DNA of 63,373 nucleotides, the filler included, from Reclinomonas americana ATCC 50394 (taxonomy: Eukaryota): assembly GCA_048213135.1 (NCBI GenBank). It is 20 parts of 18 records of this genome, joined end to end, with 100 filler letters (N's around TTAATTAATTAA, not from the genome) between each part and the next. Parts side by side here need not be neighbours in the genome. Positions count along the whole stretch, not along the records: positions 14,611 to 18,303 come from AFZH01016684.1; 19 more parts are not named here. The stretch is one strand, 5' to 3'. The notes below the pieces were generated by a model. It was not told the origin of the DNA and ran no database searches. It saw only the letters and a list, made by a program, of their open reading frames with translations. Shown here in pieces: positions 16,001-18,288 of this stretch. The stretch's first letter is position 1; each line of letters opens with the position of its first letter. A program made the position numbers and the translations under genes.

Positions 16001-18288
16001 GACTGCGCAGCTTCAACGCCGACGACCTGAAGGGCGACGGCCAGCTGTGGTCGGTCAACTTTGTCGGCGAGGGTGCCATTGACGCTGGGTTCGTCGAATG
16101 TGCTCTTGTGGTCGACGACCGTCACTCGTCGTCTCAATTCCTTTCTGTCCCCTCCCAGTGGCCCGTACCGCGAGTCGATTACGCTCGCGTGCGCCGACCT
16201 CATGTCGAACTGCACGCAGCTGTTCATCCAGAGCCCCAACGGTCGTCACGGTCTCGGCATCAACCGCGAAAAGTTTGTGCCGAATCCCGGCGCCACGTCC
16301 AAGCTGCATCTCGAGATGTACCGCTTCGTGGGTGTCCTCATGGGCATCTCGCTGCGCACGCATCATTCGCTGTCGCTCGACTTGCCCTCCATTGTGTGGA
16401 AGCAACTGGTTGGTGGTAGTGCCCCGCCGTGTGCCTCTTCTCTTGAGTCTCCAACTCATGCGTACACGCATGCAGCTCGAAGAGGATGTCGACAAGAGCG
16501 ATCTGGAGGCCATTGACAAGCTGTGCGTGCAGGCGCTTGACGAGCTGAAGAAGATCGACAAGGACGCGTTCGAGGATGTGTTTATGGAGACGTTCTGCAC
16601 GCAACTCTCCAACGGTCAGGAGAAGGAGCTGAAGGAGGGCGGCAAGCTGATTCCAGTGACGTTGCGTGCCTGGACAAGAGAGAGAGAGAGCTCGCACAGA
16701 GAAACAGTCCTTGTGTACCCACTCTTTTGTTCTTGTGCAGGTACGCGTCGCGCGAGGAGTTCGCGCAGCTGGTGTTGCAGACGCGGCTCTCCGAGTCGCA
16801 TGCACAGATCAAGGCCATTCGCACTGGTCTGTCACAGATTGTGCCGTACCGCCTGCTCAAGCTGTTCTCGGGCACGGAGCTGGAGTTGATGAGTTGCGGC
16901 AGTGACCGGAGCGACAGGATCATCAATCCTGTAGACTCATCGTTGCTTTCTTTGATGTGCGTGTCGCAGTCTGTGGCAAGCCCGACATTGATGGTTTGTT
17001 TTTCACAGACTGCATCATTGTTTGAGCATTTATCTGTGTCTCTTACGCACTCTTATGCAGTCTCCGTGCTCAAGCGCCACACCAAGTACTCGGGCCTGTC
17101 GGCCTCCACGCCTGTCGTGCAGTACTTGTGGCGCGCCCTGGAGTCGTTCTCGCCGTCCGAGCGCTGCCTGTTTTTGCGCTTTGTGTGGGGTGCGTGGAGC
17201 TGGCGAGCAGATATCAAGTGGTTTAGTGCTCAATCGTGCGTGACTTTCCCCTCCTGTTTTTCTCGCAGGCCGCAACCGCATGCCCGCTACCGAGTCCGAC
17301 TGGGACACTCCATTCACGATCAATCGGTCAGTTTTTGACACGCACTTGCTCTTTTGAGATATCTGATTGACAATGTGCGTTGATCAGCTTCCGCGGTGGT
17401 GGCGAGGACTCTGATTCGACCCTGCCAGTGGCCCACACCTGCTGTTGCGTTTATTTCAAGAGTGTGTAATTTTATGTCGTTTCTTGTGGTCTCACCAAGC
17501 AATTGTTTGTGCGTAGTGTTGCGTCCGAGACGTGTGGTCCTGCTGTGTGATTGCTATGTTGGTACTCACGTTTCTTCTTGCACCGCACAGCGTGCGTTGT
17601 CGTGTAATCTGTCACGCTGTCGCAACTCTTGCTTTTCGTGACTCACCGTGTTTTCTGTCCTCTTGTCACTGTCGTTCGTTCAAACTTGTCGTGTAGTGTG
17701 AGTACCATCGTCGTGTCGCTTTGCCTGATCTCTGTACATTCTCACTCACTGTGTGTGTTCTTGCGTTGCAGTGTTGCGTTCCGGTCACGTCGCAAAAAAG
17801 ATTGCTGTGTCATTTGCACTCACACTGAGTTGTTGCTATTTTTTCTCTCGAAACTCTCCCACAGCTCGGTGAGTGCTCGCTGCAGTGAACGCGCCTTTCT
17901 TGTCTCTGTTCCTAATTCACTCACCCTTTTGCTCCTCTTGTGCGTACTGCAGCTCGGTGCGTGTTGCTGCACTGTCAACGAAAGTCATCTTGTGTGAGAT
18001 GAGGCTCACCGATCTGTGCGCAGATTTGCCGAACTGGAGCTCGTACGAGGTCACGCGAGAGCGGTGAGTGAGAGGCCTGTTGTCCGTGGTGCTCGTCTAG
18101 TGTCGGTGTCGCTCACACAGGCGTTTTGCGCGCAGCATTCTCTTTGCGATTGTCAACTGCCAGGCCATCGACACGGATTTCAACCCGAACTCGTCTGCGG
18201 TTCGTGCGCATCACCCCCTTTCGTGTCTTGATTATTATCATGATGCTGTTTACTGACCCTCCTCGCCTGCCTTTTCCATTGCGCAGTG
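309..18288 (+). CDS. Giant multi-exon HECT E3 ubiquitin ligase (HERC/HECTD4-like): helical region, LamG, SPRY, beta-sandwich, C-terminal HECT; partial at both ends and interrupted by gaps
   Basis: Manual splicing gives HECT motifs VNFVGEGAIDAGGPYRE, LFIQSPNG...EKFVPNP, YRFVGVLMGISLR, LFSGTELELMICGKPDID, FLRFVWGRNRMP and LPVAHTCFFSLDLP...ILFAIVNCQAIDTDF. SPRY and LamG exons lie upstream on the same strand, with GT-AG introns throughout. Confidence 0.9.
3237..3336. other. Artificial scaffold spacer N44-TTAATTAATTAA-N44 (example; recurs at more than 20 positions)
   Basis: Identical 100-nt structure each time, with stop codons in all six frames. Confidence 0.97.
5718..6591 (+). other. LamG/concanavalin-like domain exons of the E3 ligase
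   Basis: GYVNLG...ITMELW...KWHHIAAVYDGRTWSIFLNG...WYVG...HIAELRIWS...LAGYFKLNE is the typical LamG-3 pattern. Confidence 0.8.
7219..9085 (-). CDS. Internal exons of the same giant E3 ligase on an oppositely oriented contig (helical region plus ESPHP-type CUB-like module)
   Basis: Long minus-strand exons (AGLAVFYPSPAEQ; ESPHPLKG...IPDATSLKIQFHPKSSFERG; WLGSELLSEGLE). No start or stop codon, and both ends are linker gaps. Confidence 0.7.
13125..13709 (+). other. SPRY domain exons of the E3 ligase
   Basis: LLSGKWYWEVK...ITIGVV...GIGADQSGMSWG...VIGVMLDLDEHKMTF...FFPAVS...FNFG. Confidence 0.9.
15947..18199 (+). other. HECT catalytic domain; catalytic Cys codon at 17440-17442
   Basis: Spliced translation follows the HECT consensus from VxFxGEGAxDxGG to HTCF and the terminal IDTDF. 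Confidence 0.92.
17444..18023 (+). other. Seven introns separating six micro-exons: 1-nt exons at 17517 (T), 17591 (C), 17697 (T), 17772 (T); 4-nt exons at 17865-17868 and 17953-17956 (CTCG)
   Basis: Junctions gcgtag|T|gttgcgt, gcacag|C|gtgcgt, gtgtag|T|gtgagt, ttgcag|T|gttgcgt, ccacag|CTCG|gtgagt, ctgcag|CTCG|gtgcgt. Joined sequence tgc ttc ttc tcg ctc gat ttg ccg = CFFSLDLP. Confidence 0.85.

Follow-up and report, generated by a model that had tools for sequence, protein, structure and literature searches.

Can exons of one and four nucleotides, placed one directly after the other, be spliced into the active-site region of an enzyme? The question is raised by a locus of Reclinomonas americana ATCC 50394 (assembly GCA_048213135.1), analysed here within a stretch of 63,373 nucleotides (nt), the window, in which all coordinates are given. 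The locus is the predicted HECT part of a SPRY-DOC-HECT (HECTD3-like) E3 ligase gene, carried by the contig at 14611-18303 (AFZH01016684.1). The exon ending with its catalytic-cysteine motif, AHTC, and the exon opening onto the next conserved motif, LPNW, are separated by 580 nt in which a first-pass annotation of the sequence had placed seven introns and six micro-exons. The reading favoured here, to which we assign a probability of roughly 0.8, is that the seven introns are real and that the array of micro-exons (1, 1, 1, 1, 4 and 4 nt) is used.

Anatomy of the predicted micro-exon array

Between the end of the AHTC exon (17443) and the start of the LPNW exon (18024), the 580 nt consist of seven GT...YAG units with lengths of, in order, 73, 73, 105, 74, 92, 84 and 67 nt. 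The donors are GTGAGT, GTGCGT or GTTGCGT in all seven units and the acceptors are TAG or CAG, while an exact CTCAC is present in each unit, its A located 16-52 nt from the 3' end. Donor consensus, branch motif, YAG acceptor and normal length are those of U2-type GT-AG introns in all seven cases. The bases left between the units are T, C, T, T, CTCG and CTCG. Joined to the last base (t) of the AHTC exon and to the first two (at) of the LPNW exon, they assemble as TTC TTC TCG CTC GAT, which encodes FFSLD in frame between AHTC and LPNW. Each of the five consecutive bonds of T-T-C-T-T-C would hold an intron, seven introns would fall within 15 coding nt, and the intron phases would be, from first to last, 1, 2, 0, 1, 2, 0 and 1.

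The elements are listed below, all on the plus strand, exons and introns being predicted ones; the number in brackets after the branch motif is the distance in nt of its A from the end of the intron.

15947..18199 (+): HECT part of the SPRY-DOC-HECT (HECTD3-like) E3 ligase gene, 16 exons including six micro-exons (Pfam, spliced model)
17388..17443 (+): 56-nt exon ending with the catalytic-Cys motif AHTC and the T that begins the next codon (tblastn alignments of P0006 and P0008 stop at 17442; gene model)
17444..17516 (+): intron 1, 73 nt, GTTGCGT...CTCAC (23)...TAG, phase 1
17517 (+): 1-nt exon T, base 2 of Phe codon 1
17518..17590 (+): intron 2, 73 nt, GTTGCGT...CTCAC (23)...CAG, phase 2
17591 (+): 1-nt exon C, base 3 of Phe codon 1
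17592..17696 (+): intron 3, 105 nt, GTGCGT...CTCAC (52)...TAG, phase 0
17697 (+): 1-nt exon T, base 1 of Phe codon 2
17698..17771 (+): intron 4, 74 nt, GTGAGT...CTCACTCAC (28/24)...CAG, phase 1
17772 (+): 1-nt exon T, base 2 of Phe codon 2
17773..17864 (+): intron 5, 92 nt, GTTGCGT...CTCAC (43)...CAG, phase 2
17865..17868 (+): 4-nt exon CTCG, base 3 of Phe codon 2 and the Ser codon
17869..17952 (+): intron 6, 84 nt, GTGAGT...CTCAC (30)...CAG, phase 0
17953..17956 (+): 4-nt exon CTCG, Leu codon and base 1 of the Asp codon
17957..18023 (+): intron 7, 67 nt, GTGCGT...CTCAC (16)...CAG, phase 1
18024..18063 (+): 40-nt exon, bases 2 and 3 of the Asp codon followed by LPNW... of the HECT C-lobe (tblastn with P0008; gene model)

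Both Phe codons would be built from three exons each, the first from t17443, T17517 and C17591 and the second from T17697, T17772 and C17865. On recomputation, the coordinates, the seven lengths, the leftover bases and the splice signals given in the first-pass annotation all proved correct. Joining by coordinates reproduced its FFSLD, whose length matches the five-residue spacing of the family, and the base coordinates agree with its assembly of both Phe codons from three exons. Its statement that the 580 nt hold no usable open reading frame calls for a minor qualification: a stop-free frame of 129 codons runs through 17608-17997. The frame is of low complexity and tblastn with two orthologues finds nothing in 17444-18022.

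Lengths range from 61 to 87 nt in the ten introns of the gene that homology supports, all of which terminate in CAG; one further intron upstream measures 210 nt and carries a GA microsatellite. The array introns (67-105 nt) fit the intron range of the gene, whereas a single 580-nt intron is far outside it. Strong donors (GTGAGT/GTGCGT/GTTGCGT) are found in 7/7 array introns as compared to 3/10 ordinary ones (hypergeometric P ~0.006), and the exact CTCAC in 7/7 as compared to 2/10 (hypergeometric P ~0.002), bearing in mind that both classes were defined post hoc, after the array had been seen. A G occupies donor position -1 in only two of the seven array introns, which follows from the identity of the micro-exon bases. 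The strong intronic signals look like compensation for the absent exonic ones, as expected of sites that are used, and a similar trend is described for the 1-nt exon of plant VPS55 (PMC8831610).

Other identities for the array introns were considered. Recent tandem duplication of one intron is rejected, the seven displaying no likeness beyond their splice signals (mean column identity 37%). The local-alignment z among their interiors averages 1.0 with a maximum of 3.1, and the sole notable direct repeat is a 14-nt CAG-CTCG-GTG[A/C]GTG around the two 4-nt exons. Concerning an introner-type, multi-copy origin, no match longer than 18 nt to the array introns was found elsewhere within the 63-kb window. 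A role as hosts of small nucleolar or other non-coding RNAs is also rejected, as Rfam returns only one chance-level match (19.3 bits, for a gathering score of 80). As to a special RNA fold joining the sites, the region folds no better than its shuffles (z 0.25).

Gene identity, fit to the family and chance controls

HECT domain matches (Pfam PF00632) were obtained on three exon-bearing frames, with E-values of 7.4e-18, 3.8e-07 and 7.6e-05; the weakest frame (E 7.6e-05) scores 22.9 bits and lies 1 bit below the cut-off of 23.9. A SPRY domain is encoded upstream, on the contig preceding 14611-18303. When the frame 16541-17338 was used in an exhaustive phmmer search, 1513 relatives were obtained at E <=0.001. 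The full-length relatives P0004, P0006, P0008, P0009, P0010 and P0012 all exhibit AHTCFF-x-x-[DE]-LP-x-Y at the catalytic Cys, and human HECTD3 is the closest solved structure to the orthologue P0008 (E 4.5e-63). Together, the Pfam matches and this structural neighbour bear out the HECT ligase identity proposed in the first-pass annotation. Word-index searches of protein collections gave no match for the 265-aa frame and only P0001 for the 42-aa exon; in the collections searched in this way, these queries detected no annotated or transcript-derived protein of the source organism.

The gene model was built with P0006 and P0008 as guides (tblastn). Its exons are, in order, 142, 250, 185, 152, 24, 129, 58, 56, 1, 1, 1, 1, 4, 4, 40 and 64 nt long. 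The spliced model is stop-free over 370 amino acids and is 55, 57 and 53% identical to P0006, P0008 and P0012, respectively, over the full length (6-7 gaps, E 1e-141 to 1e-165). In HECT E3 ligases the catalytic Cys sits in an HTC motif ~35 residues from the C-terminus, and the model is consistent with this. The predicted gene is an intact-looking HECTD3-like ligase gene of a very intron-dense genome. To note, its 24-nt exon (16970-16993), flanked by introns of 77 and 67 nt, codes for (I)CGKPDID, and alignment to P0001, P0006 and P0008 supports it. At the other end, past an intron at 18200-18286 (GTTCGT...CAG), only TG (18287-88) precedes another GTTCGTGT donor, and the contig ends 15 nt further on. 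This TG may be a 2-nt exon providing the first two bases of the Trp codon found near the C-terminus of the orthologues, or may be part of a stop codon. Elsewhere in the window, a Rab-family GTPase gene (41000-42000, minus strand) displays at least six short introns and a 30-nt exon; judging from this gene, very short exons are usual in the genome.

The pentapeptide following the catalytic Cys provides a ruler for the array. Among the 150 best relatives, the spacing from TC to [LMI]P.[YWF] is five residues in all 70 occurrences. The pentapeptides are mostly FFS[LIV][DE], the commonest being FFSLE, FFSID and FFTLD, with three instances of FFSLD itself in this set; HERC2-like animal paralogues have FFLLK at this position. 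The analysis was extended to 80 metagenome loci, retrieved by means of the aligned sequences of the neighbouring exon: 22 do not reach the motif, and the remaining 58 have both motifs, uninterrupted, always with a spacing of five.

The 64 include/skip combinations of the six micro-exons were scored against a profile derived from 82 non-redundant relatives. The product with all six included reaches 88.5 bits and is the only one with the invariant five-residue spacing. The best partial products, three versions retaining three of the six and having one Phe fewer, reach 76.8 bits. Excised whole, the 580 nt leave C-Y-LP, in frame and four residues shorter, as the first-pass annotation had stated of a single intron; this skip-all product scores 62.2 bits, 26 below the complete one. 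In total 22 combinations are in frame, 20 of them yielding a shortened product in which F or S follows the Cys, and the 42 out-of-frame combinations each score less than 28 bits. The training set of the profile was picked with a spacing of five and the profile favours this spacing by construction, which is why the argument rests on the independent spacing counts. All six leftovers supply bases needed for the frame and for the conserved motif.

Three chance controls were run. In the first, a strict unit had to possess a strong donor, a CT[CG]A[CT] located 8-50 nt upstream of a YAG and a total length between 50 and 160 nt, and units were chained with tiling gaps of at most 6 nt. The real sequence contains one chain of seven strict units. 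Of 200 Markov shuffles of the window, 184 contained no chain beyond a single unit and 16 reached two units; of 100 sequences, each of 58 kb and with the composition of the 580-nt region, 59 stopped at one unit and 41 at two. A chain of more than two units was obtained in 0 of the 300 shuffles. In the second control, the region was crossed with bare GT..AG introns of at least 40 nt leaving 12 nt. There are 167 such paths, among which 109 different inserts and 100 different peptides are represented, and a single path, the predicted micro-exon one, gives a family-type peptide (FF-x-[LIVMF]-[DEK]). The idea of an ordinary hidden exon coding for FFSLD within the 580 nt is rejected on the same count, since the only path of the 167 to give an FFSLD-type peptide is that of the micro-exons. 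In the third control, 31 of 1000 dinucleotide shuffles also offered some family-type path when only GT and AG were required, so that the coding fit alone is worth roughly P 0.03. Taken together, the coding fit and the seven complete signal sets are beyond chance. A window scan for an acceptor and a donor separated by at most 4 nt, with a branch motif, found one other plus-strand site outside the array, CAG-CCGG-GTGCGT at 22810-22825 with a branch-like motif upstream, which is probably fortuitous.

Splicing route, intron history and rival explanations

According to the reading favoured here, the 580 nt would be seven separate conventional U2-type GT-AG spliceosomal introns. Each would be defined across its own 67-105 nt (intron definition) by unusually uniform intronic signals, the tiny exons giving no recognition signal. 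With a 1-nt exon, the upstream AG falls at positions -3/-2 of the next donor, where acceptor- and donor-binding factors would overlap. Because a donor 1 nt past an acceptor is not plausibly co-occupied, neighbouring introns would have to go in turn: abutting introns would be removed serially, in a recursive-like manner, each step leaving 1 or 4 nt. Either order of removal would leave a valid substrate, co-transcriptional 5'-to-3' removal being the simplest guess, and the mature mRNA would encode FFSLD, the pentapeptide after the catalytic Cys of HECTD3-like ligases. This is the model proposed by the Arabidopsis authors for one 1-nt exon (PMC4674806), repeated six times. The first-pass annotation had likewise suggested strictly intron-defined, probably ordered splicing, a reasonable view that accords with the Arabidopsis proposal. 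From the genomic sequence, we infer that splicing takes this form, with serial and efficient removal and a constitutive array.

Several observations weigh against this reading. Four back-to-back 1-nt exons have no published precedent in the literature searched, which covered few subscription journals and contained proven 1-nt exons only as isolated cases; the first-pass annotation had likewise known of single ones and of no run of four. The CTCAC motifs of introns 3 and 5 are located 52 and 43 nt from their acceptors, farther than in the other five. The array is unique in the ~58 kb of the window, other chains with gaps of at most 6 nt amounting to one chance pair, antisense of the same stretch. 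Finally, as to conservation of the array, the closest relative, P0001, ends before the active site, and the best orthologous DNA among the 80 metagenome loci is only 65% identical, the motif being uninterrupted in all 58 that reach it.

Some relatives nevertheless seem to carry introns at the same place. Among 97 relatives with the motif xPxxHTC, 11 deviate from the expected continuation. Deviations in P0039, P0119 and P0145 are simple residue variants. Five of the 97 break inside or at the end of the pentapeptide: P0002 straight after HTC, P0040 after FFQ, P0135 after FFS, P0003 one base past FFSI, and P0043 after FFSIE. P0002 continues with V-R, the read-through expected of a GTGCGT-type donor, and the read-through of P0003 suggests an intron where intron 7 lies in the array. 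The five breaks look like prokaryote-style gene calls entering introns, which would place introns at the pentapeptide in related organisms. P0001, which comes from a 3-kb ENA contig, is 72% identical to the gene product where the two match and 79-81% identical in the 42-aa exon. It has the intron after FVWG in common with the gene, is devoid of the two introns flanking the 24-nt exon and has an extra one in ESDLQ|IRSIR. Because P0001 shares, lacks and adds introns relative to the gene, intron positions appear to turn over fast in this lineage, and the pentapeptide stretch seems intron-prone. The contigs of P0001, P0002 and P0003 are not among the 80 metagenome loci, and their introns were read from the protein sequences. 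A scan of viral contigs found no orthologous locus, and that of genome contigs returned only one HERC2-like eukaryotic contaminant, in a bacterial metagenome-assembled genome.

A more specific version of the favoured reading holds that the array is real and constitutive and is, in addition, the footprint of local intron gain, an existing intron having seeded the neighbouring bonds. An excised intron could have been reverse-spliced next door in the same transcript and then copied back into DNA. The intron differences of P0001, and the seemingly single introns of other relatives at other bonds of the same 15 bases, are the basis for this proposal, which we regard as doubtful. If true, the locus would be a natural record of intron multiplication, and would place the practical limit of the spliceosome at a single intron for each bond and a single base for each exon.

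In a rival explanation, the sites are real but would be used variably, with frequent skipping of micro-exons giving frameshifted, decay-prone isoforms or isoforms 1-4 residues shorter, and the array would then control ligase output as a gate, either leaky or regulated. The 42 of 64 patterns that are out of frame and the 20 that are shorter and in frame suit such a gate, the 1-nt exon of plant VPS55 is described as alternatively included (PMC8831610), and the DNA does not force each donor onto the nearest acceptor. Short introns and nearest-neighbour pairing are nonetheless the rule in this gene and the uniformly strong signals favour efficient use, which makes frequent skipping quite unlikely.

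Removal of the region as one large intron, or a few, would skip all micro-exons, leave a ligase four residues short and reduce the internal signals to chance or relics. The skip-all product is in frame and is what an automatic predictor would output. Yet, besides its deficit of 26 bits, it breaks the spacing that is invariant in 70/70 relatives and 58/58 loci, and the seven complete, strong, tiling signal sets that it would leave unexplained are absent from the shuffles. The 580 nt are 6-7 times as long as the ten ordinary introns (61-87 nt), and strong sites inside a real intron would cause mis-splicing and should be selected against. We consider this explanation very unlikely.

Least credible of all is that the locus represents a pseudogene copy in decay, or an artefact of an assembly that is highly fragmented, with the functional gene elsewhere: the contigs are indeed of a few kb, joined by spacers, and the gene leaves its contig at 18303, but the 16 HECT exons are open and align end to end with the orthologues, the seven introns are unique sequences and not collapsed or duplicated reads, and in a decaying copy the seven signal sets would not have stayed perfect, nor the 12 bases exact.

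Relation to known systems and remainder of the window

Isolated 1-nt exons have been described in plants and in a fungus. That of Arabidopsis APC11 is constitutive (Guo & Liu 2015, PMC4674806), and 1-nt exons are reported for plant APC11 and VPS55 (Yu et al. 2022, PMC8831610). As in the present array, these consist of a single base between AG and GT that keeps the frame and is overlooked by annotation, and their authors propose intron definition and stepwise, recursive-like removal. They are, however, isolated, one per gene, and proven by reverse-transcription PCR, RNA sequencing (RNA-seq) and reporters, whereas the array has six micro-exons in a row, deduced from DNA. Among plants, the nearest parallel for neighbouring micro-exons is a pair from rice, 5 and 12 nt long (PMC8831610). 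A 1-nt exon of the Fusarium cytochrome P450 CYP621A, published in February 2026, is called by its authors the second reported example (PMC12940212). It resembles the present case in that it was deduced from motif spacing with an intronless relative as ruler, lies in an AG-N-GT with conserved signals and completes the codon of an invariant motif. It differs in being a lone exon, with conservation across 24 genes and confirmation from reads of the Sequence Read Archive (PMC12940212).

Two further systems share the serial character of the proposed mechanism. At the ratchet points of Drosophila, as described, an acceptor abuts a donor and serial re-splicing takes place, each step regenerating a substrate (bioRxiv 10.1101/006163, PMC8605326). 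No base is left at these points and they split very long introns, whereas the array leaves 1 or 4 coding bases from introns of 67-105 nt. Zero-nucleotide ratchet points are rejected for the array, 1 or 4 bases being present between every AG and the next GT; the array would work like recursive splicing, yet it falls outside the ratchet-point class. Fungal stwintrons are likewise described as complex intervening sequences excised by consecutive reactions (PMC5587772, PMC9024468). In these, the inner intron interrupts a signal of the outer one, while the units of the array stand side by side and their removal creates no new signal. A stwintron is also rejected here, each unit having complete signals and none being split by its neighbour.

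If transcripts confirm the array, it would be the densest intron packing described, with seven introns in 15 coding bases, and the first run of consecutive 1-nt exons. The spliceosome would then work with essentially no exon information, by intron definition alone, and the locus would offer a natural substrate for studying the order in which abutting introns are removed. It bears also on intron gain, with many unrelated introns in one short stretch of a lineage whose intron positions differ. From a practical standpoint, gene predictors and standard RNA-seq aligners would mis-annotate such a gene, yielding a ligase with a damaged active-site region; standard aligners are reported to fail on 1-nt exons (PMC8831610).

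The rest of the window consists of contigs of ~1-7 kb joined by N44-TTAATTAATTAA-N44 spacers (21 places, 3237-62235). Five longer runs of N, of 648-995, are also present, and the low-GC bins of the composition profile are due to N runs. Searches for rRNA, tRNA and Rfam families gave no hits. A unit of ~1.03-1.2 kb in five tandem copies occupies 45200-51430 and 52850-59120, the block being duplicated ~7.65 kb away with 79-96% identity. A second tandem repeat, at 37027-37685, comprises units of 133/159 nt in 2.3-2.9 copies with 87-93% matches, and its copies hold, on the minus strand, a motif resembling an exon end plus donor. Finally, a long open frame with a PAP2 match, at 22588-23778 on the plus strand, would be an exon of unusual length by the standard of this genome; in the atlas it neighbours bacterial clusters resembling vanadium chloroperoxidases (vanadium-haloperoxidase-like).

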